Source: Brevundimonas sp. A19_0
Lineage (GTDB): Bacteria > Pseudomonadota > Alphaproteobacteria > Caulobacterales > Caulobacteraceae
NCBI RefSeq assembly: GCF_017744255.1
Contig: NZ_JAGHQP010000004.1
Location: forward strand, 20,010 to 52,009
Direction of reading: 5' to 3'
Length of the DNA stretch: 32,000 nucleotides
Shown: piece after piece, positions 3,001-19,947 of the stretch
How positions within the stretch are numbered: the first letter of the stretch is position 1
Layout: each line of letters starts with the position of its first letter
Notes under the pieces: model-generated
What the model was told of the DNA's origin: nothing
Databases searched by the model: none
What the model saw: the letters and a program-made list of their open reading frames with translations, nothing else
Made by a program: the position numbers and the translations under genes

Positions 3001-3055
3001 CGGCCATAACTGCCAGCAGGAGGCGGCGGGCGTGAGACAGACCGAACATCTTCAT
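1..3055 (-). CDS. RHS / YD-repeat family protein, N-terminal ~1018 codons (3' end beyond the left edge)
   Basis: Absent from the ORF track because it has no in-window stop. My reverse-complement translation from ATG 3055..3053 gives MKMFGLSHARRLLLAVMAGAAALGVAVLPASAQTT, a Sec-type signal. The frame then stays open to the window edge and contains many YD units: YTYDDEGLL, YAYDGFDRV, YGYDANDNL, YTFDALNRE, TTYDNLDRR, WTWDALGRP, SAYDLVGQR, YSYDALGRY. The ATG overlaps the upstream gene's TGA (ATGA at 3052-3055). Confidence 0.85.
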   Translation of the reverse strand, partial: MKMFGLSHARRLLLAVMAGAAALGVAVLPASAQTTLEAPPVYEQVGPLGVDVISGTAQISSPAISIGDPAAGGLSFSATWDTQKEAWRYSTLTSLSRTINKESSCFALYTVVYLGSSNVFQREECDGPTFELIDGFGALTEETDGSFTYVSVDGAVAVFPAASPTPVGTPVQTITRLNGEVITFETGSIRNNLGYELRFTTNTSGDQVVTAVNNTVCPVGGACPGGTSWPSLTFSSVGNERRVTDATNATTRITLSGTTPGLDLPVGVSRPTQTTGNSITYGYSFVRGRGTVVTSASDGRGTWTYAYETYCAPAPAPCSPPQGSYQLSTTVTDPNSQTSEYHIAWLGYTVWTSPTTQEEQFTPSLVWIKNGMNQQTDIFQSGGGLRFAELPEGNSVTIGRNPNGAVTSILTTPKPGSGLSPRESTAHYPDCSVNAVLCLQPDSITDARGNVTNFTYDATTGLPLTATRPAPTSGAARPQTRFTWTPQYAWYKVAGTPGFVQAPTPVWVQTETSACATAAPSPGCNGTADEVVTTTAYEVGDVSTGSNLRPVSTTARNGAGTLSATTTMTYDAVGNVRTVDGPLAGTADTTWYAYDVMRRPTGTIAPDPDGAGPLPYPATRTVYNADGQPLEVRQGSATAQSDAALAAMTVLSKSVTAYDAQARKAREDQVLGSGTISVIQYTYDDEGLLLCTAVRMNPAEYGSLPGSACTRGSVGAFGGDRITQNTYDEADRLTVVRSAVGHPTLEQATRTQAWTMNGQIDWVEDANGNRSDYAYDGFDRVYRLYFPNPTIGSQAPSATDYEEYGYDANDNLTSRRLRDGQEITYTFDALNRETVKTVPGSGTANDVFTTYDNLDRRLSARFTNATTGDGVVWTWDALGRPITETTYGRTLTSAYDLVGQRTRLTWPGGAAAEYEWDLANRMVLAWDNAGSPSGTGLFAAYSYDALGRYLVVQKGGGSTNFAYVPNSRNWSMSLNLAGTTNDVTWSFASNPSGQIISRESSNPAYDYPMAGMTTRTYA

Positions 3056-3606
3056 CCTCCCGGGTTCCAGCCGACTGTCACGGTTCCGGTGTAGGCCACG
3101 GCCGCAGCGCCGTCGGTAACCTTGCAGCGCCAGTTGGCGAACTTGGGCGGGGTCGAGAGGGACCCTGTCCACTCAAAGGCTGTATTGGCCGAGGTAATGC
3201 TGGTCGGAACGATCAGTGCCGAGCCGCCCGTACGCTCCCAGAGATAGGTGTAGGGTGCTGTCCCGCCGCTGGCCGTGACGTAGGCCTGGGCCGACGGCCC
3301 ATATCCCGTGCCGGAGATCGAGGTCGGGGTAACCGATGCCGACAATGGAGGCGGAGGCGGAGGTGGGGGTGGTGGAGGAGTCGCTGCTGCCGCAACCTGG
3401 GTCCGGTTGCCCGCTGGGTCGTAGGTGTAGGTGATCGTGACGCCACTCGGATAGGCCGCAGAGATCAGACGGCCCAAATCGTCGTAGGTGTAAACCACGG
3501 GGTCCTTGGCGCTCGCGCGGCCGGCTCGACCGAAGGTGAGCAAGGCCAGCCCCGAGGCCAGAGACAGCAACGCAGTCCGACGTTCGTTTCGCAAGTTACC
3601 CCCCAT
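3052..3606 (-). CDS. Small secreted YD-repeat / poly-proline / Ig-like-domain protein, first gene of the RHS operon
   Basis: 184-aa ORF. It has an N-terminal signal-like segment (ALLSLASGLALLTFGRAGRASA) and one YD-repeat pair (VVYTYDDLGRLISAAYPSGVTITYTYDPAGNRTQV). A proline run follows, then a beta-rich C-terminal module with the motif GGTAPYTYLWE, which resembles PKD/Ig-type repeats. The stop overlaps the RHS start. Confidence 0.75.
   Translation of the reverse strand: MGGNLRNERRTALLSLASGLALLTFGRAGRASAKDPVVYTYDDLGRLISAAYPSGVTITYTYDPAGNRTQVAAAATPPPPPPPPPPPLSASVTPTSISGTGYGPSAQAYVTASGGTAPYTYLWERTGGSALIVPTSITSANTAFEWTGSLSTPPKFANWRCKVTDGAAAVAYTGTVTVGWNPGG
3346..3378 (-). repeat. CCN x11 tract encoding a poly-proline linker
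   Basis: The plus-strand run tgg agg cgg agg cgg agg tgg ggg tgg tgg agg reads as 11 consecutive Pro codons on the minus strand, in the frame of the 3052..3606 ORF. Confidence 0.9.
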
Positions 3607-4106: not shown

Positions 4107-4364
4107 ATGCCGAAGACTGTCCATTCCGACGCCGGTGCGTCGGTGCTCCGCGTCCTCATTGAGGCGCGCAAGACGGCCGGAGTAACGCAGGCGGAACTAG
4201 CCCGGCGCGTGGGAAGTCAGCAGCCAGTGATTTCGCTCATTGAACGTGGGGTGCGGCGCGTGGATGTGGTGGAGTTCTACGTGCTTGCCCGGGCCATAGG
4301 GGCAGATCCGGTTGACCTCTTCCGGAAGGCCGGAAGCGGCATTCCACTCTCGCAGTCCCTGTAG
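4107..4364 (+). CDS. XRE/Cro-C1 family helix-turn-helix transcriptional regulator (85 aa)
   Basis: LRVLIEARKTAGVTQAELARRVGSQQPVISLIERGVRRVDVVEFYVLARAIGADP is the classic HTH_3 pattern (GxTQxELA...S.IE.G.R). Confidence 0.85.
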   Translation: MPKTVHSDAGASVLRVLIEARKTAGVTQAELARRVGSQQPVISLIERGVRRVDVVEFYVLARAIGADPVDLFRKAGSGIPLSQSL

Positions 4365-4443
4365 CTGTCAAAGTCCGTCTCGGCCTTCTGTCCCGCGCCT
4401 CTCGTCCGAGGCGGCGGGGCTCGAATATCGCCACGCCATCGGT

Positions 4444-5193
4444 GTGACGGAAGAGGCACTCGAAGAGGTGCTGGATGCCAATCGCGTGCGCTACTGCGGC
4501 ACACTTGACGACGTTATGGGCTTTGACCTCGCTCCGCCGATCGAAGCCGCGATGGCCGAAGGTCCGGAAGTGCGCACACCGCCGCAAAGGGAGGAGCGTC
4601 CGCGTGTCGCGTTGCCAGAAGAGCCGTCTGACGCCGTTGAGCCTCGTGTCTCCGCGCTGCGCCCTGCGCCGGAGCCGCGCGAGCTTGGAAAGGGTGGATC
4701 GCAGCATCGCTATGTCCAGCACCTGGTGAAGGGGCTAGCCGAAGAGCGGGGGTTCCGGGCTGTGATTGAGGAGGCCGTTGAAGGCGGTCAGGTCGACGTC
4801 GCTCTCTACCGAGACGACCTCTCGATTGCGTGCGAGATTTCCGTGACCTCGACCGCCCAATACGAAGCTCAAAACCTCGCCAAATGCGCCCAGGCGGGGT
4901 TCTCGCGCGTTCTCGCCATTGCGGCTGACGCGAAGCGCCTGAAAGCCATTGAAACCGCCGCCAGGGCCCGTCTGTCGGACGAGGAGATGGGCTGCATCGA
5001 CTTCCTCACGCCGGAGCACGTCGCCGCAGCGCTGGATGCCTTCGCGGCGCCAAGCGAGGAAGCGAGCGTGGTTCGCGGCTATCGGGTGAAGGTGTCCCGC
5101 ACCATCGTCGGTGCAGATGAGGCGAAGGACCGCAGAAGCGCCATCGCCCGGGTCATCGCTCAATCCATGCGCGGTCTTCCGCAGGACAAGTAG
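4444..5193 (+). CDS. Hypothetical protein with a PD-(D/E)xK (restriction-endonuclease-like) core motif; start uncertain
   Basis: The ORF is open from 4312, but its first ~44 codons look non-coding. In-frame candidates are GTG 4444 and ATG 4516. The core is GGSQHRYVQHLVKGLAEERGFRAVIEEAVEGGQVDVALYRDDLSIACEISVTSTAQYEAQNLAKC. The pattern E...D-V-(x)n-E-I-S...E..N..K resembles nuclease-fold proteins (Asp codon within 4792-4800, Glu 4834-4836). Codon usage is good throughout. Confidence 0.6.
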   Translation: MTEEALEEVLDANRVRYCGTLDDVMGFDLAPPIEAAMAEGPEVRTPPQREERPRVALPEEPSDAVEPRVSALRPAPEPRELGKGGSQHRYVQHLVKGLAEERGFRAVIEEAVEGGQVDVALYRDDLSIACEISVTSTAQYEAQNLAKCAQAGFSRVLAIAADAKRLKAIETAARARLSDEEMGCIDFLTPEHVAAALDAFAAPSEEASVVRGYRVKVSRTIVGADEAKDRRSAIARVIAQSMRGLPQDK

Positions 5194-5204
5194 CACTTCA
5201 TGAA

Positions 5205-6443
5205 GTGCCCCCGGGCCAAACCTTGGCCGAGGCGCACACTGCTGGGATGCCGAGCGACCCGGGGAAGGCAGTCTCATACTTCGGCAGAACCAACTTCCAT
5301 CGCCGCGGTCAGCGTTTCGGCATACGGCAGGCAGACCGGCTGTCGCATGTGTATGTGATCGGCAAGACCGGCGTCGGCAAATCTACGCTGCTTGAGGTGC
5401 TGGCGAGTCAGGACCTAGCGGCCGGACGCGGGTTCGCTCTCATCGACCCGCATGGCGACTTGGCCGAGCGTCTTCGCGATGCGGCGCAGCCGATCCTCGG
5501 CGGCCAGCTCAACTATCTGGACGCCGCCGATCCAAACCAACCCCTCGGCTATAATCCGCTTCGCCGGGTCCGGGACGACAAGATTCCGCTCGCAGTCTCT
5601 GGCTTCCTTGAGGCCCTCAAGAAGCTATGGCCGGACGCGTGGGGCGTACGCATGGAGCATGTGCTTCGCAACAGCCTTTACGCGCTCCTGGAGCGAGACG
5701 ACTCAACACTACCGGACATCCTCGGCCTCTATTCGGATGAGACATTTAGAAAGCAGGTGACCGGCAGGATCCGGAATGAGGTGGTGCGCCGATATTGGTC
5801 GCACGAGTTTGCCAAATATCCGGACCGCCTTCGGGTCGAAGCCTGCGCACCCATCCAGAACAAGCTCGGCGCTCTCTTGACCGATCCGCGCCTCTACCGT
5901 GTTCTGGTCGCTCCCGAGCGCCACATCCGGTTCCGCAAGATTATGGACGAGGGCGGGGCGCTGGTCGTGAACCTGGCCAAGGGACGGCTTGGCGAGGACG
6001 GCGCGGCGCTCCTGGGCGGCTTCATCGCCTCGACCATCGGGCTCGCGGGTCTGAGCCGCGCGGACGCGCCGGCCGCGGATCGCCGTCCCTTCTTTTTCTA
6101 CATCGACGAGTTCCAGAGCTTCACCACGCTCGCGTTCGTGAATATGCTCCCGGAACTGCGCAAATACGGCGTCGGTCTGACCCTCGCGCACCAGCACCTG
6201 AACCAGCTGGAGCCGGACATCCGCCACGCCGTGCTCGGGAACGTCGGCACCGTCATCTCATTCCGCGTCGGTGCCGAAGACGCTGCGGTAATGGCGAGAG
6301 AATTTCAGCCGACCTTCGATGTGCTTGACCTGATCGGCTTGGCCAACCGCGACATGTATCTGAAACTCATGATCGACGGCGCGCCGAGCCCGCCGTTCAG
6401 TGCTCGCTCCATCGATCCCGTTCTGCCAACTGCGAACGGTTGA
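5205..6443 (+). CDS. Soluble P-loop ATPase of the TraD/VirD4 coupling-protein / HerA-FtsK type (AAA_10 / TraG-D_C-like)
   Basis: Motifs seen: Walker A VIGKTGVGKST (~5361-5387); DPHGDL just downstream; GYNPL; Walker B RPFFFYIDEFQSF (~6090-6116); and a C-terminal LTLAHQHLNQL...GNVGTVISFRVG, as in T4CP C-terminal domains. No transmembrane N-terminus. Start is GTG 5205 or ATG 5247. Confidence 0.75.
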   Translation: MPPGQTLAEAHTAGMPSDPGKAVSYFGRTNFHRRGQRFGIRQADRLSHVYVIGKTGVGKSTLLEVLASQDLAAGRGFALIDPHGDLAERLRDAAQPILGGQLNYLDAADPNQPLGYNPLRRVRDDKIPLAVSGFLEALKKLWPDAWGVRMEHVLRNSLYALLERDDSTLPDILGLYSDETFRKQVTGRIRNEVVRRYWSHEFAKYPDRLRVEACAPIQNKLGALLTDPRLYRVLVAPERHIRFRKIMDEGGALVVNLAKGRLGEDGAALLGGFIASTIGLAGLSRADAPAADRRPFFFYIDEFQSFTTLAFVNMLPELRKYGVGLTLAHQHLNQLEPDIRHAVLGNVGTVISFRVGAEDAAVMAREFQPTFDVLDLIGLANRDMYLKLMIDGAPSPPFSARSIDPVLPTANG

Positions 6444-6595: not shown

Positions 6596-7306
6596 ATGAA
6601 GGTCGGGGCGGCTGACGATCTTGAGCATCGGTACATGGCGAAGTTTCGCCAGTTTGCGGCCAGCTACGGAACGTTCGTGGAGTACACTTCGGATCGGGCC
6701 GGTCGGGATATCGGTTTGCACTTGACGCAGCTCGCATCGTCCGGCGGAAAGGTCGTCACCCCGGCGTTGGTTTGGTTCCAGATGAAGGGCATTCCGGCGG
6801 CGAGGCTGCCGAGGGAGGCGTTCGACGCTGCCGAGGCGGTCACGCTATCGCTCCAAACTAACCATCTACGTTTCTGGTACATCGCACCGGAGCCGTCCTA
6901 CCTCGTCGTCTATGTGGAGAGTTCCGATCAGTTCCTGGTGTTCAATATCAAGACTTGGATTTCCGAAGAGTTGGGCGAAACGGTTCTCACCACGACCCAG
7001 CAGTCTTACTCGGTCTCGATCGACAAGAAGAACATCCTCGACGACCACGCCTTCGGAATCGTTCTGAGGAGAAACTTGGTGTCGGTCGTGCGCGAACGGC
7101 TGGGCGCTGCGGACGACGCCGAAGCTCGTCGGTTTCTCGCGGCGTCTGAGGTCGTTAAGTGGATGGATGCCTGCCGCCAGCAGGGCGTCTCGACGCGTAT
7201 CGCCGTGAAGGTATGGATCACGGAGACCCGAACAGAGGTCATCTTTCTAAGCAACCCGCCGGAGCTGACGACCGGATCCCCGCTCGCGTGCACTGGCAAT
7301 ACATGA
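6596..7306 (+). CDS. DUF4365-like (PD-(D/E)xK nuclease fold) domain protein, 236 aa
   Basis: A strong RBS (GGAGGAAGAGG) precedes ATG 6596. TSDRAGRDIGLHLTQL...GKVVTPALVWFQMKG matches my memory of the DUF4365 signature (D-x-G-x-D ... v-Q-x-K), at ~6692-6721 and ~6776-6790. It is followed by HLRFWYIAPEPSYLVVYV. The family call is from memory only. Confidence 0.5.
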   Translation: MKVGAADDLEHRYMAKFRQFAASYGTFVEYTSDRAGRDIGLHLTQLASSGGKVVTPALVWFQMKGIPAARLPREAFDAAEAVTLSLQTNHLRFWYIAPEPSYLVVYVESSDQFLVFNIKTWISEELGETVLTTTQQSYSVSIDKKNILDDHAFGIVLRRNLVSVVRERLGAADDAEARRFLAASEVVKWMDACRQQGVSTRIAVKVWITETRTEVIFLSNPPELTTGSPLACTGNT

Positions 7307-7695
7307 TGCCGCCGCTGGCGGAGACGTTCCCGTTCCTTTCCTTTTCGGGCGGCCGCCAAGCGCGGTTTGGGGAACGCATCACCATCGAAGAATACGATGG
7401 GGAGATCTACACCGAGCCCCACCGAGTCATCGAATGGCTCGACCGCAATGACGCGGACGAAATGGACGACGAGGAGCTCGAGGGCGAAGGCTGGCTCGCG
7501 CTTGGCGAGGACATCTATGCATACGGTGAGTTTGCCGGTGGCGAATGGGTCGAACACGAGTTCGACATCAGCCTGAACGAGCTCGGCGAAAACTGGCTCT
7601 CGACTTCGAAGGTGATGGAGGCGGCCGAAATCCTTGTAGTAGGGGAAGCGGAAGGCTGGGTGAGCGTCGCGCCCTGGCATGCGCGGGACCTCTAG
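7303..7695 (+). CDS. Highly acidic 130-aa protein, translationally coupled to the DUF4365-like gene
   Basis: ATGATG at 7303 overlaps the upstream TGA (7304-7306). My count gives 23 Glu + 9 Asp versus 6 Arg + 1 Lys in 130 aa. Third codon positions are mostly G/C in this frame. The antisense 224-aa ORF (7006..7680) looks like a shadow ORF. Confidence 0.65.
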   Translation: MMPPLAETFPFLSFSGGRQARFGERITIEEYDGEIYTEPHRVIEWLDRNDADEMDDEELEGEGWLALGEDIYAYGEFAGGEWVEHEFDISLNELGENWLSTSKVMEAAEILVVGEAEGWVSVAPWHARDL

Positions 7696-7699
7696 CCGG

Positions 7700-9010
7700 C
7701 TAGGCCTGCGCCGCCTCTTCGTCCTCGTTATCGGCCAGAAGGTCTAGCTTGCCCCAAATCTCCAGGAACGGCGCAAGCGTCATAATCTGTCCCTCATCGT
7801 GCTCAGTCGGTCCAAGTGCCTTGACCTTGTGCCGCCTTATCCGTTGGCGGGTGATCTTGGCCTGAAGGCTGAACATCTCGCCATCTGCATTCGCCGCGAA
7901 CATCACCAGCGCTTCGCCGCGGCGTTGAGCCTCGGCGGCGAAGCCGCTTTCTGGGAGGTCCTCTCGTCGCGCAGTCCAGGCTTCGGAAATGAATGTCACG
8001 CCGTTCGCACCGATCTGGCGTGCCCTCGCCGCGGCGTCGCGCATCATCATGTATTTCGCGCGCCGATCGGTGGACCAAGCCTGGATTTGGTCTACGGGGA
8101 GCAGGTCCTTCCATAGGAGCATAATGGGCATGTGGTAGCCGTCTCGCAGCATGACGCGGCGAGCCTCGGCGAAGAACACCTCCGCCATCTCTCTGAAACT
8201 TCGCGCATCCTTGAGTCCCGCCCAAGCATCCTTGACGTAACGCTTCCGGGCGAGCCGCGTCACCTTTGCAGATGGTTGTCCTCTCGGAATTCGGCCGATC
8301 TCCATCTCACGGCCGGTGCTCACCGCTACGTAGATGGTGCGCTCTGCCTCCAAGACCTCCATGGACTTCAGACGTCCGTCGGGGAGAGTATCAAGCAGGA
8401 GATGCTCGCCCTTGTCGGGGCCTCCGCGGGGGATATCGGCGCCGATGTGCCGATGAAGCTCGACGACCATTTGCGCCAACTGGCCGTAGACGTGAGCAAG
8501 GGCGTCGAGGATCTCGTGATCAGGTAGCTCCGCGTCGACCCAACGACGCTGCACGCACAGGACGCCGTGCTTGAGGACGTGCTCATCCAAAAGATGGGCG
8601 GGAATAGTGCGGCGAATGTCCCCCAAGGACGCGAAAACGTTCGCCGGAGTCCAGGCTGTGTGCGGGTGCCCCGCGTAGCTCGCCACCAGTTCAACCTTGA
8701 CTTGGCTGAGTGTGGCCAGATCGCCTTGCTTCTCGATCTTATTTCGAGCGTTGACCGCCCATCTCATGATCGGATCGGACTTGAATCTCGATTGAACGCC
8801 TTCGTACCAAGCCTTGAACTCGGGAATCGCCGCCTTGTTGCTTTGCAGGATGAAGGTGACGGTGCGCGCGGTAGCGATCGTGGACTGCAAGCCCAAGCGG
8901 AATTTGTCAGGCTCGAAATAGGCGCTTCGCGTCTGGTGCCAGAGCTGGCGCAGATCTCCCAGACGCCGGAGGACAGCACCGACCGCGTTTGAAACTTCGT
9001 CGACTTCCAT
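7700..9010 (-). CDS. Hypothetical protein, 436 aa, no motif I can assign; directly downstream of and co-oriented with qatD
   Basis: Long ORF with normal amino-acid composition. I saw no P-loop, no TM segment and no recognisable catalytic motif. A 59-bp gap separates it from the qatD stop, with only a weak 6-bp hairpin (GCGCTC..GAGCGC) and no T-tract. Confidence 0.7.
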   Translation of the reverse strand: MEVDEVSNAVGAVLRRLGDLRQLWHQTRSAYFEPDKFRLGLQSTIATARTVTFILQSNKAAIPEFKAWYEGVQSRFKSDPIMRWAVNARNKIEKQGDLATLSQVKVELVASYAGHPHTAWTPANVFASLGDIRRTIPAHLLDEHVLKHGVLCVQRRWVDAELPDHEILDALAHVYGQLAQMVVELHRHIGADIPRGGPDKGEHLLLDTLPDGRLKSMEVLEAERTIYVAVSTGREMEIGRIPRGQPSAKVTRLARKRYVKDAWAGLKDARSFREMAEVFFAEARRVMLRDGYHMPIMLLWKDLLPVDQIQAWSTDRRAKYMMMRDAAARARQIGANGVTFISEAWTARREDLPESGFAAEAQRRGEALVMFAANADGEMFSLQAKITRQRIRRHKVKALGPTEHDEGQIMTLAPFLEIWGKLDLLADNEDEEAAQA

Positions 9011-9069
9011 GGCGGCTTCTATTGCCTCGGGCGCTCAATGCGCTTGGAGCGCGGCACAGTTTGACCCTG

Positions 9070-9810
9070 TTAGACTACTGGAACCGAACCCAACAACGAG
9101 CGGAGGTTTGCATGCAGTTGGGCGGGCACGGCCTCTTCAGTCATGCGCCAGACCTCAGCTAGTGTGACGTATGTGAGAGAAACGTCCCACGGCATCAAAG
9201 GGCGTCCGTTCACCTGCGCAAACGGCGCGTCAGTTTCGGTAAGGACGCGTTCGGCTGGCATGGCCTGAGCCAGCTGCTTGCCCTTTGCAGAGTTCAACAT
9301 CGAGGGGCCGACGCTGAACCAGCAGCCGAGCTTCACCGCCCGAGCAAGCTCCCGCTCGGTGCCGCTGAACCAGTGCAGAACTGGCGTTCCTGCAGCCGGG
9401 AATTCCTCGATCAAGTCCAAGACTGGTGTAGCCGCACGCCTAGAGTGGAAACTCATGATCCGACCACCAGCATCCGCGCAACCGCGCAACATGCGCTTCA
9501 GAATCCGCTTCTGAATGTCGAAGCTGCCTCGGTGTTGCGGACTACCGTCGAGACCGATTTCACCGACATACCTCGCTTCGGGCAGGAAGTGTTCCCACAG
9601 TGGTATTTCGGTGTGGCGTTCAGCTACCAGTTCGGGGTGAAGCCCGAGGCCTACCCGCACACGCCTCAGGTTGCGGACCAGCTTCTGATTTCCCGCCCAC
9701 GCCTTGGGCGTTGTGGTGACCGCTAAAACGTAAACGCCTTTTGCCTCGGCTTCCGCCAAAACAGCGGCGGGATCGGCATAAAGATCGATGTGGCAGTGGA
9801 AATCGATCAA
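9070..9810 (-). CDS. qatD: QatD, TatD-family metal-dependent DNase/hydrolase
   Basis: Motifs IDFHCHIDL (HxH), VGEIGLDG, SFHSR and LTETDAPF are TatD hallmarks. The apparent start is TTG at 9810, overlapping the qatC stop (9807-9809). Confidence 0.85.
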   Translation of the reverse strand: MIDFHCHIDLYADPAAVLAEAEAKGVYVLAVTTTPKAWAGNQKLVRNLRRVRVGLGLHPELVAERHTEIPLWEHFLPEARYVGEIGLDGSPQHRGSFDIQKRILKRMLRGCADAGGRIMSFHSRRAATPVLDLIEEFPAAGTPVLHWFSGTERELARAVKLGCWFSVGPSMLNSAKGKQLAQAMPAERVLTETDAPFAQVNGRPLMPWDVSLTYVTLAEVWRMTEEAVPAQLHANLRSLLGSVPVV

Positions 9811-11081
9811 ATCACACCATGCGCCTTCAACAAGGTTTCAAGTTCCGCAAGGCCCCGCAGCGCCGTGTCCTCTAAATCGGTCGTTGGGCCTAATTGTGCC
9901 GAGTTCAGAGAACCTCCGATCCATGCGTTACGCCCGCGCGAATCTGCAAGATGGACGGCGTAGGCAGCCGACCGGACGTCATCGAAGTCCATGTGTTTTC
10001 GGCCCGGTAGACCGAGGTTATCGTACTTGTAGCTGGGCGTGGAATCCGTAACACCCCATCTCAGGAAGGACGCGCGCCGAACAAGGCAGGGCACGCATCG
10101 ACCGCATTGGGTGAATCCGGTTCTGGCGTAGCGGCCGCAGCTGGTCGTACCGCCAATCAGAGATTTGAGGAGCGTTTGATTGGCGCATCCCGCCAGCATC
10201 TCGCCTTTGGTCTTCAGCTGGTAGGGGTTCTGGAGCTGTACGTTGAGACCGGCAGCGGTCAGGACGCTTTGCAGCTTTCCGAGATAGAATGGGTGCGTCG
10301 TTCTCGTGCTTAGGGAACCGACACGCATAGGCGTGAGCGGGATGTTAAGGCTGATGAAGCCGTTTTCTGGCACGATGAGGTCGATGGTCGCACCTTTGGC
10401 GTAGGCCTCTAGGCAGGTCGCCGAGAGCACACCTAATCCGAAGAAAACCATCGACCTGGCGCGCTGCGAACGCTCCGACTGGATCGGGGGCGATGCGTTG
10501 TGATTGAGCTGGATGTGCAGAGACTGTGGAGAGATCGTCCGTGCGAATCGACTCTGATCTTTCTTGTCACCCTTAGCGACTTGGCTGACGAGCAGGGGCT
10601 TATGCCCTTGCGCGACCAGATCGATCGCTCCGATCAGGCTGTCCATACCTCCGGACAAGAGGCAGACGATGTCTTCGGTTCGATGCTGGACGGGGATAGG
10701 TGGTGCCGGAAGATAGCCGCCCCCGAAGAATGCCACCTTCCAGATGTCGCCCGTGACGAACTGGAGCATTTGCTCAAGTTCTGGCGCGACTCCATTCCAG
10801 AAGGCAGGATCGACGACAGCCACAGTCAAGTCGATTTGGCGCGTCCAGCCATCGGGGCTGGTGCTGCGGGTGCAGGACTCGTCCGCAGCTACGACGGATA
10901 GGGCAAAGGAAAGAAAGTCCCAGGCCCTTGCCGATGGCTGAAGCTTTAGGCCGCGAAAATAGGGTGGGATGGCCGCGCCAATAGCGCCTTCATTGGGCGT
11001 GTTTTTATAACCGTAGAGAATGAACGGAATGTCAGTGCTCGTGGGAAATGCCGTCCCGGCAGGTGCGCAGCTGACCCTCAT
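9807..11081 (-). CDS. qatC: QatC, QueC-like PP-loop ATPase
   Basis: It has the PP-loop VCLLSGGMDSLIGAIDL, the motif KTKGEM, and the C-terminal Cys cluster CGRYARTGFTQCGRCVPCLVRR, as in QueC Zn sites. The ATG at 11081 overlaps the qatB TGA (TGATG). GTG 11084 is also possible. Confidence 0.85.
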   Translation of the reverse strand: MRVSCAPAGTAFPTSTDIPFILYGYKNTPNEGAIGAAIPPYFRGLKLQPSARAWDFLSFALSVVAADESCTRSTSPDGWTRQIDLTVAVVDPAFWNGVAPELEQMLQFVTGDIWKVAFFGGGYLPAPPIPVQHRTEDIVCLLSGGMDSLIGAIDLVAQGHKPLLVSQVAKGDKKDQSRFARTISPQSLHIQLNHNASPPIQSERSQRARSMVFFGLGVLSATCLEAYAKGATIDLIVPENGFISLNIPLTPMRVGSLSTRTTHPFYLGKLQSVLTAAGLNVQLQNPYQLKTKGEMLAGCANQTLLKSLIGGTTSCGRYARTGFTQCGRCVPCLVRRASFLRWGVTDSTPSYKYDNLGLPGRKHMDFDDVRSAAYAVHLADSRGRNAWIGGSLNSAQLGPTTDLEDTALRGLAELETLLKAHGVI

Positions 11082-11875
11082 CACAGGTAGCTCTCAAAGA
11101 TTTCGAAGGTGTCGCGAATGATGTCATTCGCCAACTCGCTGGCGACTTGGCGATTCATGGTTTGCCCGACGTTCGCCCTGGCCCGAAAGGCGCGCGCCAC
11201 CTCTTGGCGGACGTAGCTCTTCATCTCTTCCAGCCGGTCAACGCCCTGAGCATAGTTCGGTGCCTTGTCGAGAATCGCCTGCCCGACATCGAACTCGATC
11301 CGCTGCGCAAGATCGCCGGCGATGTAGGACTCGATCACCAGATCGATTTCCGGCGGCGTTAGCGCCGCCAGGTCGGCGTTCGGGTTATGAGCAAGCACTT
11401 CCGAAAGCGCCCTGGAAACGGAGTCGCGCGCGCCCTCTGTGTCTTGTGTCCCGTCGACGGGCCGAAGCGCCTCGACGATGATGTCGGCAATCTCCTTTTG
11501 GGTGCGACCCGCCAAGCTTGCCGGATTAAGAGTGACGTCGGTCGGCAGCGGAGCGCCCGTGCTCAGCGCATCCAAGACTCCATAGAGACCGCCCGCTGTC
11601 CGGGCCGTCCCCGCCATGCGTTGGGCGGCCGACGCAGCGCCACCGAGTCCCTTGCGGGAGTAGTGGCCAAGCCCGCGGCGAAGGTCTCGCGGCCCCCCAG
11701 ACCGGCCATACCGGCCGAGGCTTGTCCGCGCCGGCCTAAAGCGGCCAGCGGGCGCGACGGCGGGGGGATTTGCTCCCGCCGCAGGCGAGGGCTGCTGTCC
11801 CGGCGCAGAGGGAACCCATTCAGGGACCAAGGGGATGCCCGAGCCCGGGCCCTTGCTTGATGCCGAAGTCCCCAT
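11081..11875 (-). CDS. qatB: QatB (assigned by position in the Qat operon); disordered G/P/A/S-rich N-terminal third and helical acidic C-terminus
   Basis: It lies between the KAP ATPase and the QueC-like gene. The ATG at 11875 overlaps the qatA TGA by 1 nt (TGATG). The protein starts MGTSASSKGPGSGIPLVPEW. The track's upstream extension (to 11986) overlaps qatA and is Cys/Gly-rich junk. Confidence 0.7.
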   Translation of the reverse strand: MGTSASSKGPGSGIPLVPEWVPSAPGQQPSPAAGANPPAVAPAGRFRPARTSLGRYGRSGGPRDLRRGLGHYSRKGLGGAASAAQRMAGTARTAGGLYGVLDALSTGAPLPTDVTLNPASLAGRTQKEIADIIVEALRPVDGTQDTEGARDSVSRALSEVLAHNPNADLAALTPPEIDLVIESYIAGDLAQRIEFDVGQAILDKAPNYAQGVDRLEEMKSYVRQEVARAFRARANVGQTMNRQVASELANDIIRDTFEIFESYL

Positions 11876-13755
11876 CAGTGCCTCTCGTTTCCAGCGGCTT
11901 TCTTGCTGGCCGCAGCAATCGCCTTCTTCACCGGTTCCGAAACATTCGGCTCCTTCACCCAACCGGCCAGCACATCGACAGCCCAAGGCTTATCAGCCAG
12001 CAACGGCACAATCGGAGCCGTTATCTGCGCCGGGGGAAGATCACCCATGAAGCGTGCAACGGTTTGGATGTGAGCGCCTGGCACGGCGGCGACGGTGAGC
12101 AGTGCATTGAGAATCTGAGGCGTACCCCACTGCTCAACAGCTCGCGCCCGACTGAGGACCCGCTCCGCAATGCGACTGACTTCGTTCAAAGGCAGTGCAT
12201 GCAGCTTCTGAACCAATGTCGAACTCGGCGTTGTGCTCAGCTTGAGTAGCGCTTCAAGTAGGTTCGCACCTTCGGACGACAATTTGTCCGCTGCCGTTAT
12301 GATCGGCATGCGCTCCCGGCTGACGTAGACGATGCCGCGAAGATCTTGTTCGCCAAGGGGCGGCTCTAGCGCCAACCAATCGCGCACGAACTCGTCGTCC
12401 CACTCGCCCTCAAGGACAAGACTGGCCGGGTCTTTCGCGGCCATCTCTTCGAGCGGCACGAGCAAGCTTGCCTTGCCGTCTTCGCTCTCGTTGATGGTCC
12501 GAAGAATCTCGGCATAGGCCGCTTCCGATCCGCACCGCTCGAACAGCAGCATTTTGGCTAGAGCGGTCTCGTCCACATTGACCTGTTGGACACGGGCGAT
12601 GGCTTTGCGGATCGATAGTGTGTTGAGCAGGCGCTTAATGAGGCGAGGGTTGCCCGCAATCTTGTTCGATGTGGTCAGGATGGGGGCGATGCGATCCGCA
12701 AGGTCCAACTGAAGACCCAAGTCGAGCGGGACCTCTTTGATCAGAGATTCCACATAGGCGCGATCGACTCGCTTACCCGACCAGGTTTCTCCCAACCGCT
12801 TGCAGATCGCCGCCCGAGCGGAATCCTGCTCCTCCTTTTTGAGGCTGCTATTCTCGATAAATAGCATCATCAAATAGGCGCGCACGTCCTGTGTACCCAG
12901 CGGGGGGACGCGGATGGGGACCTGGATCAGTTTGTCGAAATAGTTCGTAACGAGATCGTCTGTGAGCCTAGCGTCTTTGAAGTGATCTACTACCGCGCGT
13001 TTGATCATTTCGTCGTCGGCCGCGATCACGAATGCCGTGTGGTCGAGGAAAAGGAAGAGGCGCATTGCCTCCAAGGTCGCGATCGCTGTCGGCGGCAGAC
13101 AGCGGTCGAGGTCGTCAATCAATACGACCAAGGTGACGCCTAGGTCCTTCAGTGTCTTTTCGAGTTCGTCTCGGAAATCCTGGATTTCTTTCGGGGGGGT
13201 TTGATCGGCCGCGCCGCTCTCTTTCAGGAAGCCCTTTGCATCGCCCGCTAGTTTGGCCGCTGCGTCCAAGTCCGTTTCAGTAACTTGCCCATCCGTCAGG
13301 TCTCTATAGACAGCGATCCCGTCGCCGATGAGTCCGACTGGAGGCAGGCCGACCGCTAATGCCGCGACAGTTTTCGCACTGGCGCTCGCCAGTCGAAGCC
13401 AGTTGACACGCTTCAGGAGGTTTTGGGCGTGCCACACCACATTGTCGCCGAGGTCCTTGCTCTCCTCCGCCTTTTTCAGAACGGCCCGAGCGATGACCTC
13501 CATCAGCGCAGCGCGAGTATCGTCGTAGCCCTGATAGAGCCAAGCGTTGAACTCGACGAATAGATAATCCTCGGCAGTCCGAGACTTAAGCGACTGAGCC
13601 AGAAGCTTCATCATCGACGACTTGCCGACGCCCCAGCTCCCAGAAATCCCCATCGAAATGGGCTTCCCGTTGGCCTGCAGTATCATCTCCGCCGCGATGT
13701 CCGCGACAAAGCCGAAATTTAGGAAATCTTGGTCGGTCTCGTTATCGGACCACAT
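11875..13755 (-). CDS. qatA: QatA, KAP-family P-loop NTPase
   Basis: Walker A is ISGSWGVGKSSMMKLL. Walker B is TLVVLIDDLDRCLP, the KAP signature. MWSDNETDQDFLNFGF is a typical KAP N-terminus. GGGGGAG lies ~10 nt upstream of ATG 13755; the track start 13791 is less likely. Confidence 0.85.
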   Translation of the reverse strand: MWSDNETDQDFLNFGFVADIAAEMILQANGKPISMGISGSWGVGKSSMMKLLAQSLKSRTAEDYLFVEFNAWLYQGYDDTRAALMEVIARAVLKKAEESKDLGDNVVWHAQNLLKRVNWLRLASASAKTVAALAVGLPPVGLIGDGIAVYRDLTDGQVTETDLDAAAKLAGDAKGFLKESGAADQTPPKEIQDFRDELEKTLKDLGVTLVVLIDDLDRCLPPTAIATLEAMRLFLFLDHTAFVIAADDEMIKRAVVDHFKDARLTDDLVTNYFDKLIQVPIRVPPLGTQDVRAYLMMLFIENSSLKKEEQDSARAAICKRLGETWSGKRVDRAYVESLIKEVPLDLGLQLDLADRIAPILTTSNKIAGNPRLIKRLLNTLSIRKAIARVQQVNVDETALAKMLLFERCGSEAAYAEILRTINESEDGKASLLVPLEEMAAKDPASLVLEGEWDDEFVRDWLALEPPLGEQDLRGIVYVSRERMPIITAADKLSSEGANLLEALLKLSTTPSSTLVQKLHALPLNEVSRIAERVLSRARAVEQWGTPQILNALLTVAAVPGAHIQTVARFMGDLPPAQITAPIVPLLADKPWAVDVLAGWVKEPNVSEPVKKAIAAASKKAAGNERH

Positions 13756-13817
13756 TTGTTGTTTGCTCCCCCGAACAGCCCACTCTCCCATTAGTTGCGG
13801 CAGGCCTCAAGTACCAA

Positions 13818-14072
13818 CTACTGAGTGGCGCAGAGGTCATCGCGGTTGAGGAATGCCTCCACTGCAGCCAGGCGGCATCCGGTGGGTAGATGTACGTCTC
13901 GCTCCCACCACATCCATGTTTTGGCGTCCACGCCGACCAAGGCCGCAGCATCCTTCTGACGAAGGCCCAGCTTCTGCCGGCGAACCCGAAGGCATTCCCC
14001 AAGTGTTGGGTTCTTGGAAAGCGTCGTATCAGGCCGAGCAGCCCTGAGGGCGCAGCTCAGGCCCGGTAGCAA
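13818..14072 (-). CDS. XRE-type helix-turn-helix regulator upstream of qatA; start uncertain (TTG 14072 or TTG 14132)
   Basis: TLGECLRVRRQKLGLRQKDAAALVGVDAKTWMWWERDVHLP is an HTH_3-like pattern. It is on the same strand as qatA and 62 nt upstream of it. There is no ATG or GTG between 14072 and the HTH. Confidence 0.65.
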   Translation of the reverse strand: MLPGLSCALRAARPDTTLSKNPTLGECLRVRRQKLGLRQKDAAALVGVDAKTWMWWERDVHLPTGCRLAAVEAFLNRDDLCATQ

Positions 14073-14085
14073 AAGGGCAACACCG

Positions 14086-14619
14086 CCATGCCGTTGCGGC
14101 CTAGGCGGGGCGGGCAAGGGGGCCTGCGGCAAGGCCCCGCGCTGCCAGAGGGACTATCAGAACCGCATCTCCGGCCCGCTGTTCGACCGCATCGACCTGA
14201 CGGTCGAGGTGCCGCCGGTGACCGCCGCCGACATGAGTCTGCCGCCTCCGACCGAGGGCACCGCCGAGGCGGCCGCCCGCGTCACCCGCGCCCGCGAGAT
14301 CCAGACCGCCCGTCTGGACGAGGCCGGCCATGAGGGCGAGCCCGTCATCAACGCCCATCTGGCCGGGGCCCTGCTGGACCGGTTCGCCCAGCCCGATGCC
14401 GACGGACGGGCCCTGCTGATGCGGGCGGGCGAGGCCGGGGGTCTGACGGCGCGCGGCTGGACCCGGACCCTGCGGCTGGCGCGAACCATCGCCGATCTCG
14501 ATGGCTCGACCGGCATCCTGCGCCGCCATGTGGCCGAGGCCCTGATCTATCGCCACACCCGGATGGACGCCGAGATGCAGTTCAACCGGGCGACCGCAGG
14601 TGCCCACGCCCCGGTTTGA
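14086..14619 (+). pseudogene. comM: 3' fragment (C-terminal ~175 codons) of a comM/yifB Mg-chelatase-like AAA ATPase, separated from its 5' part
   Basis: PCRCGLGGAGKGACGKAPRCQRDYQNRISGPLFDRIDLTVEVPPV...GLTARGWTRTLRLARTIADLDG...ILRRHVAEALIYR is the conserved ComM/YifB Zn-ribbon and C-terminal domain. The ~330-aa ATPase part that should precede it is replaced by minus-strand island genes. Confidence 0.8.
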
Positions 14620-14653: not shown

Positions 14654-16165
14654 ATGAGCGCGCCTGCCCGCCCCGCCGATCCGGATGACACGGATCCCGC
14701 CGTCCGCTTCCTGCGGCTGATGAGCCATGAGATGCGCACGCCCCTGAACGGGGTGATCGGCATGCTGGGCCTGCTGTCCGACAGTGGGTTGGACCCGGCG
14801 CAGAAGGCCTATCTGGAGGCGGCCCGAACCTCGGCCGACCATCTGCTGGGGCTGGTCAACGACCTGCTGGACTATGCCCGTCTGGATGCCGGCAGTCTGG
14901 AATTCGACCTCGCCCCCGTGGCCGTCGACGATCTGGTGCGCGGCGTCGCCGAACTGCTCAGCCCCCGGGCCCACGACAAGGGGTTGGAAATCGCCTGGAT
15001 CGTGACGCCCGACGTGCCCCGCGTGCGGGCCGACGAAGGCCGCCTGCGCCAGATCCTGTTCAACCTGGCCGGCAATGCCGTGAAGTTCACGCCATCGGGC
15101 GGGGTGTCGATGGCGGTGTCCGGCACGGATGACGGTGCCCTGGCCTTCGTCGTCGAGGACACCGGACCCGGCGTGCCCGAGGCAGCCCGCGCCCGCATCT
15201 TCGAGGAGTTCGGCCACGCCGACAGTTCCGACGCCACCCGTCACGACGGCGCGGGGCTCGGCCTCGCGGTGGCGCGCAAGCTGGCGCTCGCCATGGGCGG
15301 CAGCCTGTCGGTCGACGACCGCCCCGGCGGCGGGGCCCGGTTCGTCTTCCAAGGCCGTTTCGATCCGGTCCCCGGTGAGGACCGGCCGGCGACGGCCTCC
15401 CTCAAGGGCCTGAGGATCGCGGTGGCAGGCGCCCATCCCTTCACGACGGCGGCCGCAACGGCCATGGCCGAAGCGGCGGGGGCCACATCGGTTGATCCGC
15501 AGCAGGCCGATCTGGTGCTGGTCGATGACGACGGACGCGCGCCGGATGCCGAACTGGCCCCCCGTCCGGACAGCCGCCATGCCGTGATCCTGCTCCGGCC
15601 CGGTCGGCGCGACCGCATCGCCGACTACCGCACCGCCGGCTTCGACGGCTATCTGATCAAACCCCTGCGCCCCGCCTCTCTGGTCGAGCGCGCCCGGGCG
15701 CTGGGCGCCGCTCCCTCCGCCGCCGGACAGCTGGCCGCCGGGCCCGAGGATGACCGCCTCGTCCGCCCGGCCTTCCCCGGCGTGCGGGTGCTGCTGGTGG
15801 AGGACAATCCTGTCGGCGCCCTCCTGGCCACCACCCTGCTGAAGCGGCAAGGCTGTGTGGTTGAGACGGCCGCGGGCGGCGAGGAGGCGCTGGATGCCCT
15901 GACGCGCGCCCGGTTCGATCTGGTGCTGATGGATATGCGCATGCCGGGCATGGATGGCCTGACCGCCACCCGCACGCTGCGTGGGCGAGGGGACAGGACG
16001 CCGGTGCTGGCCCTCACCGCCAATGCCTTTGCCGACGACCGTCGCGCCTGTCTGGACGCCGGCATGGACGACCATCTGACCAAGCCTCTGGGCGTCGAGG
16101 CCCTGATCGCCGCCCTGACCCGCTGGACGAACCCGCCGGAGCGCGCCAAGGTCGCCTCCGCATAG
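14654..16165 (+). CDS. Soluble hybrid histidine kinase with DHp-CA-pseudoreceiver-receiver architecture (ShkA-like)
   Basis: The H-box LMSHEMRTPLNG (His 14726-14728) lies only ~25 aa from the N-terminus, so there is no sensor or TM region. CA motifs are NLAGNAVKFT, VEDTGPGV and GAGLGLAVA. The middle region is degenerate and receiver-like (LVLVDDD...GFDGYLIKPL). The C-terminal receiver is canonical (VLLVEDN...LVLMDMRMPGMDG...LTANA...KPL). Confidence 0.9.
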   Translation: MSAPARPADPDDTDPAVRFLRLMSHEMRTPLNGVIGMLGLLSDSGLDPAQKAYLEAARTSADHLLGLVNDLLDYARLDAGSLEFDLAPVAVDDLVRGVAELLSPRAHDKGLEIAWIVTPDVPRVRADEGRLRQILFNLAGNAVKFTPSGGVSMAVSGTDDGALAFVVEDTGPGVPEAARARIFEEFGHADSSDATRHDGAGLGLAVARKLALAMGGSLSVDDRPGGGARFVFQGRFDPVPGEDRPATASLKGLRIAVAGAHPFTTAAATAMAEAAGATSVDPQQADLVLVDDDGRAPDAELAPRPDSRHAVILLRPGRRDRIADYRTAGFDGYLIKPLRPASLVERARALGAAPSAAGQLAAGPEDDRLVRPAFPGVRVLLVEDNPVGALLATTLLKRQGCVVETAAGGEEALDALTRARFDLVLMDMRMPGMDGLTATRTLRGRGDRTPVLALTANAFADDRRACLDAGMDDHLTKPLGVEALIAALTRWTNPPERAKVASA

Positions 16166-16200
16166 GGACGGTTGTCGCGTCCCCGCAGAGGACGAGCCGC

Positions 16201-19844: not shown

Positions 19845-19947
19845 GAGGTCGTTTCGATCAGAGAGGAAGGCGGCGATCCTAGAGGGCGGGTGCCGCGCAA
19901 ACAACGGCAGCGAGGCCGGATTTGACGTAACGACAGGGGGGCAGCGG

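Follow-up and report, generated by a model that had tools for sequence, protein, structure and literature searches.

A lambda Ea47-family gene directly downstream of qatABCD in a Brevundimonas genomic island: very probably independent of Qat, and possibly a single-gene conflict function

The locus described here lies in a 32,000-nucleotide stretch of the Brevundimonas sp. A19_0 genome (the window), in which a gene related to ea47 of phage lambda follows a Qat operon on the same strand. The features of the locus are:

6596..7695, plus strand: convergent gene pair, a DUF4365 protein and a 130-aa ORF (gene calls; context)
7700..9010, minus strand: Ea47-like CDS of 436 aa with an ATG start and its stop codon at 7700-7702 (ORF list and translation)
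9011..9069, minus strand: 59-bp spacer between the qatD stop and the Ea47-like ATG, with a 6-bp inverted repeat, no T-tract and a weak GAAG before the ATG
9070..13791, minus strand: qatABCD operon (PADLOC and Pfam; context, outside the Ea47-like unit)
9070-9810, minus strand: qatD (PADLOC QatD, 3.1e-100)
9807-11084, minus strand: qatC (PADLOC QatC, 2.6e-103)
11081-11875, minus strand: qatB (PADLOC QatB, 1.2e-35)
11875-13791, minus strand: qatA (PADLOC QatA, 2.6e-152)
14014..14619, plus strand: 3' fragment of comM/yifB (Pfam Mg_chelatase, positions 155-207 of 207, plus Mg_chelatase_C)

On the evidence of these profile matches, accompanied by Pfam matches to KAP_NTPase, QueC and TatD_DNase, the four genes upstream of the Ea47-like gene are bona fide QatA-D. 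In the gene calls they overlap one another by 1-4 nt, whereas the Ea47-like gene stands apart from them: with the end of the qatD stop at 9070 and the Ea47-like ATG at 9010-9008, a gap of 59 bp (9011-9069) is left. The initial annotation had placed a 436-aa ORF 59 bp behind qatD on the same strand, with a weak 6-bp hairpin and no T-tract in the gap, and the ORF list and coordinates bear this out. The inverted repeat (GCGCTC-N10-GAGCGC) lies at 9031-9052, and the folding energy of the spacer (-17.8 kcal/mol) is not better than that of shuffled sequence (z = -0.25). On its minus strand the spacer shows neither a terminator-like nor a sigma-70-like site. Because the gap holds no terminator-like site, read-through is possible and qatD and the Ea47-like gene may be co-transcribed.

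The qat operon and the Ea47-like gene share a lower-GC island, as had also been proposed: the GC content is 0.58-0.64 between 3 and 14 kb and 0.67-0.74 further right. The comM/yifB fragment forms the right edge of this island, where the GC step falls at about 14 kb. No convincing att repeats were found inside the window, and the left end of the island therefore probably lies outside it. On the other side of the Ea47-like gene, the DUF4365 protein (6596-7306; Pfam 4.8e-6) is overlapped by 4 bp by the 130-aa ORF (7303-7695), whose stop codon is 4 bp from that of the Ea47-like gene. These two neighbours were absent beside every other Ea47-like gene at the loci fetched.

At 100% identity, the product of the Ea47-like gene corresponds to a Brevundimonas sp. 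A19_0 protein annotated as ‘hypothetical protein’ (P0001). This is to all appearances a real, functional gene, since it has 82 close homologues and 2648 cluster representatives (some 2,600 clusters at 50% identity) and since its dN/dS against relatives is 0.066-0.094, a ratio obtained with synonymous sites near saturation.

The suggestion that the gene encodes a fifth Qat component was addressed by comparison of loci. No Qat homologue was present within 10 kb on either side of any of the 107 other Ea47-like loci, which fall into 70 distinct groups. The closest qatABCD operons, with QatC proteins 82% and 69% identical to that of the window, have no Ea47-like gene, and the genes that follow them are unrelated. 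When the window is compared with the loci of the 80-83% identical copies, nucleotide homology extends over the CDS from ATG to stop and no further, and the 59-bp spacer is not conserved there. More generally, QatC relatives far outnumber Ea47-like proteins. The Ea47-like gene resembles QatABCD in strand, in its low-GC island and perhaps in transcript, but its product has no homology to any QatA-D model, does not co-occur with Qat elsewhere and is encoded with no start/stop overlap of the qat kind. Taken together, these comparisons make it very probable that the gene is independent of Qat.

The protein had been considered unassignable, and this proved to be wrong. The exact protein and all 82 homologues carry the Pfam tag PF26900 (Phage_lambda_Ea47), and the window protein matches phrog_19262 at E = 2.8e-40. 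A tblastn search against lambda aligned residues 15-345 at 32% identity, and a MAFFT alignment with lambda Ea47 is colinear from residue 1 to about residue 425, with invariant residues in both halves. In an alignment of 12 sequences including lambda Ea47 there are 26 invariant residues, among them those of RNxIxKxGDL, ERRW, SExW and R-x-E. Of the family-invariant residues the window protein retains RNxIxKxGDL, R155, W157, E166, E343, W345 and E366. It is thus almost certainly, as judged from sequence, a full-length member of the lambda Ea47 family (PF26900 / phrog_19262). The two proteins are alike in aligning over their full length (410 aa in lambda and 436 aa here) and in having both domains, although they are merely 26-32% identical. 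Their genes are alike in being non-core accessory genes just downstream of a defence-type operon (Ea59/Ea31 in lambda and qatABCD here), although the window copy belongs to an island in a bacterial chromosome, inserted in comM, and lambda ea47 to a phage.

Scans with Pfam-A (in a copy lacking the PF26900 model), NCBIfam and PADLOC gave no significant match to the window protein. The only PADLOC-DB v2.0.0 match among 5027 models was at chance level (an orphan methyltransferase model, E = 0.019), and among 12 diverse family members PADLOC returned weak E2 and E1-E2 matches in two members each, with a best E of 2.4e-4. No recurrent family emerged from weak Pfam matches pooled over 40 members. PADLOC-DB v2 has no matching model, and earlier surveys of defence islands have therefore missed the Ea47 family or not validated it. 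Lambda ea47 is transcribed early from the pL operon and is not known to be transcribed from the prophage. Among 50,697 phage records the family was found in 18, all of them lambda-like temperate phages, with no virulent phage represented. The gene is non-essential in lambda (PMC10695390); the literature searched mentions it solely as dispensable or as a site used for insertions, and nothing on the function of Ea47 was found. Kinship with lambda Ea47 therefore supplies a family name rather than a mechanism.

The architecture of the protein was examined in AlphaFold models, which are confident both for the full-length protein (pLDDT 88.7) and for the C-terminal domain alone (pLDDT 93.4, pTM 0.87). 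The following parts can be recognised:

8441..9010, minus strand: N-terminal domain, residues 1-190 (AlphaFold2 secondary structure, pLDDT about 90; invariant columns)
8717..8746, minus strand: family signature R-N-x-I-x-K-x-G-D-L, here RNKIEKQGDL (residues 89-98; register checked against the codons), where helix 4 reaches its C-terminal end
8201..8440, minus strand: middle region, residues 191-270 (gaps between subfamilies; pLDDT 71-85)
7736..8200, minus strand: C-terminal alpha/beta domain, residues 271-425 (full-length and domain-only AlphaFold models; invariant columns)

The N-terminal domain consists of four helices (5-29, 34-57, 65-78 and 80-95) followed by strands at 100-109, 150-159 and 162-166 and a helix at 167-189. 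It contains most of the family-invariant residues: R16, L17, Y31, F37, R49, T52, Q56, Y69, W84, R89, N90, K94, D97, S102, R155, W157 and E166. Within the signature, R89, N90, K94, D97 and L98 are invariant in 40 bacterial sequences; in the 12 sequences with lambda Ea47, I92 and G96 join them as invariant positions. The middle region contains short helices and, at about 196-215, a linker rich in indels; R224, R257 and Y258 are conserved in it. The C-terminal domain runs from a helix (272-290) through two strands, a second helix (316-333) and strands 337-346, 365-374 and 379-388 to two short strands and a final helix. Its conserved positions are D290-G-Y-H, E343-x-W345 (nt 7976-7984) and R364-x-E366 (E366 at nt 7913-7915). 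The earlier description of a helical N-terminal half and an alpha/beta C-terminal half therefore stands for the C-terminal half and for the N-terminal helices, but it overlooked the beta sheet that is also present in the N-terminal domain.

The same annotation had seen no P-loop, no transmembrane segment and no recognisable nuclease or protease motif, in agreement with our motif scans. The protein lacks a Walker A motif, and its Kyte-Doolittle hydropathy (maximum 19-residue mean 1.09) indicates no transmembrane segment. Searches of Pfam, NCBIfam, PDB sequences and, with Foldseek, PDB structures revealed neither a catalytic motif nor a known enzyme fold. A profile search of PDB sequences with the window protein gave 0 matches. 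Foldseek against the PDB found nothing significant with the full model (best E = 0.06) or with the C-terminal domain model (best E = 0.02, TM no greater than 0.25). The noise in these searches was of generic two-layer alpha/beta or GAF/CapZ/roadblock-like folds. In a Foldseek comparison with the BFVD database, uncharacterised phage proteins of 150-210 aa match one domain (E = 6e-6 to 9e-4), which we infer to be the N-terminal one.

Two assignments to known enzyme classes were considered and rejected. A P-loop NTPase or PD-(D/E)xK nuclease is contradicted by the lack of Walker A, by conserved SExW and RxE motifs that have no following Lys and by the lack of a fold match. HEPN RNases are like Ea47 in having an N-terminal four-helix bundle with R-N-x-x-x-[basic] on helix 4 (in many HEPN proteins R-N-x-x-x-H), but in Ea47 the motif occupies the middle and C-terminal part of the helix, and in HEPN proteins it lies at the helix start. 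The R-N-x-x-x-K of the Ea47 family has an invariant Lys in place of His, and neither a HEPN Pfam match nor a PDB fold match was obtained. The window protein does contain two R-x4-6-H strings, both at non-conserved positions.

Further evidence comes from the surroundings of homologues in other genomes, the 80-83% identical copies as well as more distant members. One Ea47-like gene is followed after 146 bp by the MkoA gene of a Mokosh system (MkoA 3.5e-236, MkoB 1.6e-87), another has a Drt6/Drt4-like reverse transcriptase gene (1.7e-133) 65 bp downstream, and a third has the HsdR gene of a type I system 4 bp upstream. Two Shedu SduA genes are also among the neighbours, and another locus combines type III CBASS and AbiE with a relaxase and a T4CP. 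Other contexts include MazE/Fic, ParDE and a type ISP restriction enzyme, or T4SS, Schlafen and TIR genes. ArdC, relaxase and T4SS genes accompany certain homologues that are carried by conjugative or ICE-like elements. Matches pooled over the immediate neighbours also include LmuB, PglW, integrases and resolvases. In lambda itself, Ea59 matches PDC-M01A/PtuA (3.9e-201) and Ea31 matches PDC-M01B (5.8e-113); both genes are upstream of ea47, with 563 bp between Ea31 and ea47. One of about ten annotated contexts (L121) looks mostly housekeeping. It is probable that Ea47-like genes reside in defence islands and mobile elements, on evidence that is guilt by association from individual loci without a matched genome-wide background.

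No conserved partner gene was found, the commonest neighbour being a small serine recombinase at 8 of 71 loci, and the orientation and spacing of neighbours vary widely over 70 loci. The family is patchily distributed over Alpha-, Beta- and Gammaproteobacteria, Verrucomicrobiota and Actinomycetota. In these comparisons the gene appears to travel as a single CDS and to be horizontally mobile. The Shedu protein SduA and the lactococcal Abi proteins offer a parallel: they too are encoded by stand-alone genes that sit between changing neighbours in defence islands and mobile elements and are scattered patchily over the phylogeny, although the Ea47-like protein has no kinship in sequence or fold to any PADLOC model.

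Some members of the family are longer. Among the top 150 representatives 16 (about 11%) exceed some 550 aa, and in the 10 of these that were scanned the Ea47 core is followed by SEC-C in seven, with TPR as well in three of the seven and a match to the TPR-S model in one of the three (P0293). When lambda Ea47 and long fusions were searched with phmmer, matches were confined to the SEC-C and TPR parts. Ea47-like proteins of Actinomycetota have a conserved 330-aa N-terminal extension with no Pfam match. The long members resemble Avs/STAND-like and TPR-S conflict proteins in that an N-terminal core, in the usual position of the effector, is followed by repeats, but they lack an NTPase domain, whether of the STAND type or another. 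With neither SEC-C nor repeats, the window protein differs from both its long relatives and TPR-sensor immune proteins. A literature search on SEC-C/TPR defence proteins found nothing relevant. DUF5677 is fused to an Ea47-like N-terminal domain in one protein (P0227) and is near the gene at one locus (L106). Similarity between the Ea47 N-terminal domain and DUF5677 was considered and rejected (hhalign probability 0.1%), and DUF5677, which has been assayed elsewhere as a candidate for defence, is not among genes reported to be protective (PMC12632615).

These observations are best accommodated by a single-gene unit of the Ea47 type having landed directly downstream of qatABCD in the lower-GC island, with a product that would act alone as a conflict or phage-exclusion protein. 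The initial annotation had offered ‘a new stand-alone defence gene’ as its second suggestion, and this is a reasonable but unproven reading because of the mobility of the gene as a single CDS, the lack of a conserved partner and the repeated adjacency to unrelated defence and mobile genes. Taken as a whole, the proposition that an Ea47-family gene is carried here as independent cargo and has a role related to conflict seems to us evenly balanced. A function in defence or exclusion specifically falls somewhat below that, although it is a substantial possibility.

As to mechanism, the helix register suggests that R16, R49, Q56, R89, N90, K94, D97, S102, R155 and E166 of the N-terminal domain would converge at one end of the bundle, where they might form a pocket for an anionic ligand, either a nucleotide or a nucleic acid, and so constitute a putative effector or catalytic site. 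The two-layer alpha/beta C-terminal domain, with D290, E343, W345 and E366, could then regulate or complete this site, and in the longer relatives the SEC-C zinc knuckle and TPR (TPR-S) array may have been added as a sensor of a phage-derived trigger. That the mechanism is directed at nucleotides or nucleic acids is in itself unlikely. It may tentatively be proposed that the Ea47 family is an unrecognised single-protein system of anti-phage or inter-phage exclusion, whose fold has no relative of solved structure and whose candidate active-site signature is RNxIxKxGDL with SExW/RxE. If so, the Septu-like Ea59/Ea31 pair and Ea47 would together amount to a small defence island in the lambda b region, and the Brevundimonas island would stack Qat with an independent system of the Ea47 type. 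Whatever its function, lambda ea47, among the last unexplained genes of that phage, is part of a family that is sizeable in bacteria, is kept under strong purifying selection and appears to pass, one gene at a time, between defence islands, ICEs and the accessory regions of prophages. The Septu-like matches of Ea59 and Ea31, together with Ea47, raise the possibility that the b region of lambda serves as a cassette for defence or exclusion.

Other roles have to be weighed against this one. The Ea47 protein could be a factor for counter-defence or host takeover, made early when a phage or conjugative element enters the cell and neutralising a host immune pathway. The transcription of lambda ea47 as an early pL gene, rather than from the prophage, fits such a role at least as well as it fits defence, and the dispensability of the gene, the copies near ArdC, relaxases and T4SS genes on conjugative and ICE-like elements and the one-domain structural relatives in phages are all consistent with it. 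Nevertheless, the restriction of the family among phages to lambda-like temperate ones, the residence of most copies as chromosomal island cargo beside integrases, resolvases and defence genes, and a length of 436 aa with TPR-S-type repeats in relatives, which is more like an immune sensor-effector than a small inhibitor, leave this quite unlikely. Decidedly unlikely, too, is a selfish maintenance or toxin-like gene, or other mobile-element housekeeping gene, with no role in phage conflict. It would account for the patchy distribution, for the frequent adjacency of integrases, resolvases, transposases and toxin-antitoxin pairs and for the strong purifying selection, but no conserved antitoxin-like partner and no recognisable toxin fold accompany the family, and fusions to TPR sensors would be unusual in an addiction module.

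It is very unlikely that the gene is a promiscuous accessory or regulatory module of varied defence operons, comparable to WYL/BrxR/CapW-type regulators. In favour of such a module, the gene is often on the same strand as unrelated defence operons and within about 150 bp of them (59 bp for qatD, 4 bp for HsdR, 65 bp for the DRT and 146 bp for MkoA, with 563 bp for lambda Ea31), but Pfam detected no DNA-binding domain, the flanking arrangement differs from locus to locus as noted above and several copies lie between toxin-antitoxin pairs or beside non-defence genes.

A fifth or accessory Qat component, co-transcribed with qatABCD and modulating or extending its activity, is scarcely credible and appears largely refuted by the comparative data, in spite of the short same-strand gap with its chance-level hairpin and lack of a terminator-like site and of a GC and GC3 content resembling that of the qat genes. 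The idea of a five-gene Qat can be dropped, and the definition of Qat stays clean. This is in agreement with published work, in which the canonical four-gene form makes up 98.1% of Qat clusters (PMC13434339) and QatB-QatC have been reported to be sufficient for defence (PMC13376578).

The 436-aa ORF downstream of qatD was recovered at 7700..9010 on the minus strand with an ATG start, exactly as the initial annotation had placed it. The genes of the window that bear on its interpretation are the following.

3052-3606, minus strand: 184-aa protein whose N-terminus is signal-like, with a single RHS repeat, a run of 15 prolines and an SprB-like repeat
4312-6443, plus strand: 293-aa ORF, then, after an 11-bp gap, a 412-aa TraD/TrwB/HerA-like ATPase
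6596-7695, plus strand: DUF4365 protein (236 aa) and a 130-aa ORF, with a 4-bp mutual overlap
7700-9010, minus strand: Ea47-like CDS (ORF and translation), ATG start, 436 aa
Upstream of the Ea47-like CDS, same strand: qatABCD (PADLOC: QatA 2.6e-152, QatB 1.2e-35, QatC 2.6e-103, QatD 3.1e-100)
14014-14619, plus strand: 3' fragment of comM/yifB (last ~180 aa: end of Mg_chelatase plus Mg_chelatase_C)
14654-19904: core genes to the right of the comM fragment (hybrid histidine kinase, MFS transporter, malic enzyme/PTA)

The gene does lie within a block of lower GC, as had been claimed. The right edge of this block is the truncated comM, where GC jumps from ~0.58 to ~0.71. comM is a classic island insertion site and, since the truncated gene stands exactly at the GC jump, an island carrying Qat and the Ea47-like gene appears to have been inserted in it; no att repeat of the island was found within the 32,000-nt window. 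The 130-aa ORF is convergent with the Ea47-like gene, with 4 bp between their stop codons, and may form with the DUF4365 protein another small defence-like pair, which was not found beside other Ea47-like genes. The 293-aa ORF has no family match and the 412-aa ATPase matches PADLOC mad8 (2.2e-14), with weak matches to HerA; together they might represent either a two-gene defence-like module, an ATPase with its partner, or what is left of a conjugative element.

The protein matches a 'hypothetical protein' from Brevundimonas sp. A19_0 at 100% identity. It had been regarded as unassignable, but it belongs to the Ea47 family: the identical protein and all 82 homologues found carry a precomputed PF26900 tag, labelled Phage_lambda_Ea47 in the contig look-up, and the protein matches phrog_19262 (2.8e-40; profile length 410, annotated as of unknown function). 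A Pfam scan of the protein was empty because the copy of Pfam scanned did not hold the PF26900 model. In a MAFFT alignment the protein is colinear from end to end with lambda Ea47 and with other phage and bacterial members, with invariant residues in the N-terminal part (R16, L17, Y31, P34, F37, R49, T52, Q56, Y69, D79, W84, R89, N90, I92, K94, G96, D97, L98, S102, R155, W157 and E166) and in the C-terminal part (A327, E343, W345 and E366). The family has no invariant Cys. An exhaustive HMM search returned 2648 cluster representatives at E <= 1e-3, 784 of them at E <= 1e-30. The gene is a new member of a catalogued family without an assigned function; the literature searched mentions lambda ea47 only for being dispensable, for serving as an insertion site, or as an 'unknown' of a yeast two-hybrid map. 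Ea47 constitutes a tractable orphan family that is widespread and has a phage lambda gene among its members. Comparison with copies 80-83% identical in protein gave dN/dS of 0.066-0.094 despite nearly saturated synonymous sites, which argues that the gene is clearly functional and under strong purifying selection. In a set of 12 diverse family members including lambda Ea47, two showed weak PADLOC matches to the CBASS 'E2' and 'E1-E2' models (best E = 2.4e-4) and one a weak match to PDC-M71B.

An AlphaFold2 model built from a 40-sequence alignment was confident over the full length (pLDDT 88.7, pTM 0.79). In the N-terminal part, residues 1-190, a bundle of four helices precedes beta strands and a long helix; an indel-rich linker leads to an alpha/beta C-terminal domain which, modelled alone, reached pLDDT 93.4 and pTM 0.87. 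The reported lack of a P-loop and of membrane helices was borne out, there being no Walker A motif and no transmembrane segment; nor does the protein contain a conserved R-x4-6-H motif. Among the 150 best family representatives 16 exceed ~550 aa, and in seven of ten long members scanned (P0210, P0233, P0236, P0239, P0268, P0278 and P0293) the Ea47 core, at residues 1 to ~430, is directly followed by a SEC-C zinc motif (CxCGSGxxxKxCC). Three of these fusions (P0210, P0233, P0293) have TPR repeats in addition, P0293 alone matching the TPR-S 'sensor' model, while another protein, P0227, has an N-terminal DUF5677 domain instead. Five members from Actinomycetota (loci L046, L049, L053, L064 and L072) share a conserved N-terminal extension of ~330 aa, encoded in the ~1 kb that precede the Ea47 core in the same reading frame. 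This extension has no Pfam match and contains the motifs WTNGRAFPAVWRD, SPLFLDFEA and HPWGGTDYQAW.

The genomic surroundings of relatives were compared in 80 genome and 17 viral loci, plus contigs for the closest homologues; collapsing near-identical copies, many of them apparently lambda DNA contaminating unrelated assemblies, left 71 distinct loci. The gene neighbourhoods differ between loci and abound in genes of defence and of mobile elements. An 83% identical copy lies one gene from a type III CBASS (Cap8, HORMA, SMODS, S_4TM), in an element that also carries ParB, ArdC, a relaxase, T4CP and AbiE. Downstream of an 80% identical copy lie Mokosh MkoA (3.5e-236) and MkoB (1.6e-87), and an 81% identical copy is surrounded by unknowns, with DUF4238, DUF3800 and HipA nearby. 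The Agrobacterium copy is in a small island with an integrase at its boundary, a resolvase upstream and a Drt6/Drt4-like reverse transcriptase (1.7e-133) 65 bp downstream. The Caulobacter soli copy is flanked by two Shedu-type (SduA_C) genes, one of which was scanned with PADLOC (SduA 3.2e-151), and in Sphingosinicella the gene has a MazE/Fic pair on one side and a ParD/ParE pair on the other, with a type ISP restriction enzyme nearby. Another copy adjoins a T4SS/TrwC element with Schlafen and TIR genes, and one context is mostly housekeeping in appearance. Pooled scans of 134 immediate neighbours gave integrases, resolvases and matches to MkoA, LmuB, PglW, Drt6 and PD-T4-6. The sole operon-like embedding noticed was in a Verrucomicrobiota MAG (L041, 6961-12904), with gaps of 4 bp to a type I HsdR-like gene upstream and 3 bp to a 557-aa unknown. 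The most widespread neighbour family, a ~193-aa protein whose Agrobacterium copy carries the Pfam label Resolvase (small serine recombinase), occurs in 8 of the 71 loci. Between the window and the loci that hold the 80-83% identical copies, DNA homology sets in no more than 6 nt from the ATG and stops 1 to ~35 nt short of the stop codon, so the mobile unit is the bare coding sequence. The data show an Ea47-family gene that moves singly, has no conserved partner and resides in defence-rich mobile regions.

In lambda itself (L085, 6925-9389) the two genes upstream of ea47 are ea59 and ea31. Ea59 matches PADLOC PDC-M01A (3.9e-201) and Septu PtuA (5.4e-184) and Ea31 matches PDC-M01B (5.8e-113), so the lambda b region encodes, immediately before ea47, a candidate defence pair of Septu-like type; no statement of such a pair was found in the literature searched. 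Among 50,697 phage records the family was confined to lambda-like temperate phages, and 12 plasmid records contained it, several of them of lambda length. Lambda-type Ea47 (clustered at >=95% protein identity) was also present in genome contigs L052, L054-L057 and L059-L062, from assemblies of Neobacillus, Oceanobacillus, Shewanella, Pseudomonas, Chromatium and Leeuwenhoekiella; several of these contigs measure ~48.4-48.5 kb and three contig names give a coverage of ~1. Plasmid matches H24-H26 are 48.5-kb 'plasmids' of Stenotrophomonas, Paenibacillus and Salmonella, with tblastn scores equal to that of phage match H7, 'Campylobacter phage CJLB-4'. These occurrences in unrelated records look like lambda DNA contamination or mislabelling.

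The earlier suggestion of a stand-alone defence gene survives only as a hypothesis. A function in defence or exclusion is tentatively favoured: the protein would be a conflict protein that works by itself, with phage exclusion or abortive infection as its most plausible role. Judging by helix register, the N-terminal domain would have its invariant Arg, Lys, Gln, Asn, Asp and Glu gathered beside the sheet at one bundle end, where an anionic ligand or substrate might bind. The C-terminal domain (D290, E343, W345, E366) might either regulate this putative site or complete it, and the SEC-C/TPR arrays of relatives could be added sensors. That the mechanism is specifically directed at nucleotides or nucleic acids is rather unlikely. 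Lambda ea47 is expressed early, which would favour a counter-defence or host-takeover factor, although we judge this unlikely for the present gene. A selfish or addiction gene carried by mobile elements is quite improbable, and a promiscuous accessory of diverse defence operons very doubtful.

An accessory role in Qat is hardly credible. The 59 bp reported between qatD and the gene recur in the gene calls of the identical public contig, and the weak 6-bp hairpin without a T-tract corresponds to an inverted repeat at 9031-9052, the predicted folding energy of the spacer being no better than that of shuffled sequence (z = -0.25). As a consensus scan of the spacer found no promoter or terminator on the gene's strand and the hairpin is at chance level, the proposed read-through from qatD is possible, with the sequence speaking neither for nor against it. 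Qat is a four-gene system, the canonical form making up 98.1% of 619 clusters (PMC13434339), and QatB-QatC have been reported as sufficient for defence (PMC13376578). Searches of the fetched loci with QatA-D of the window (tblastn, and blastp on called ORFs) found no homologue except in the window-identical contig, so that linkage to qat is limited to that contig among the 71 distinct loci. With the same tool, relatives of QatC greatly outnumber those of the Ea47-like protein (more than 3799 at E <= 1e-60, compared with 82), and the two closest qatABCD operons (QatC 82% and 69% identical) have unrelated genes downstream. The gene as a fifth Qat component is therefore not supported, and its finding does not extend Qat. 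For the operon itself, Pfam (KAP_NTPase, QueC, TatD_DNase) agrees with PADLOC, and in the gene calls of the identical contig neighbouring qat genes share 1-4 nt. The mechanical ORF of qatB (11081-11986, minus strand, 301 aa from a TTG start) reaches 112 bp into qatA; in the public gene calls qatB begins at 11875 (264 aa) and shares 1 nt with the qatA stop codon, a start that fits the tight coupling of the operon.
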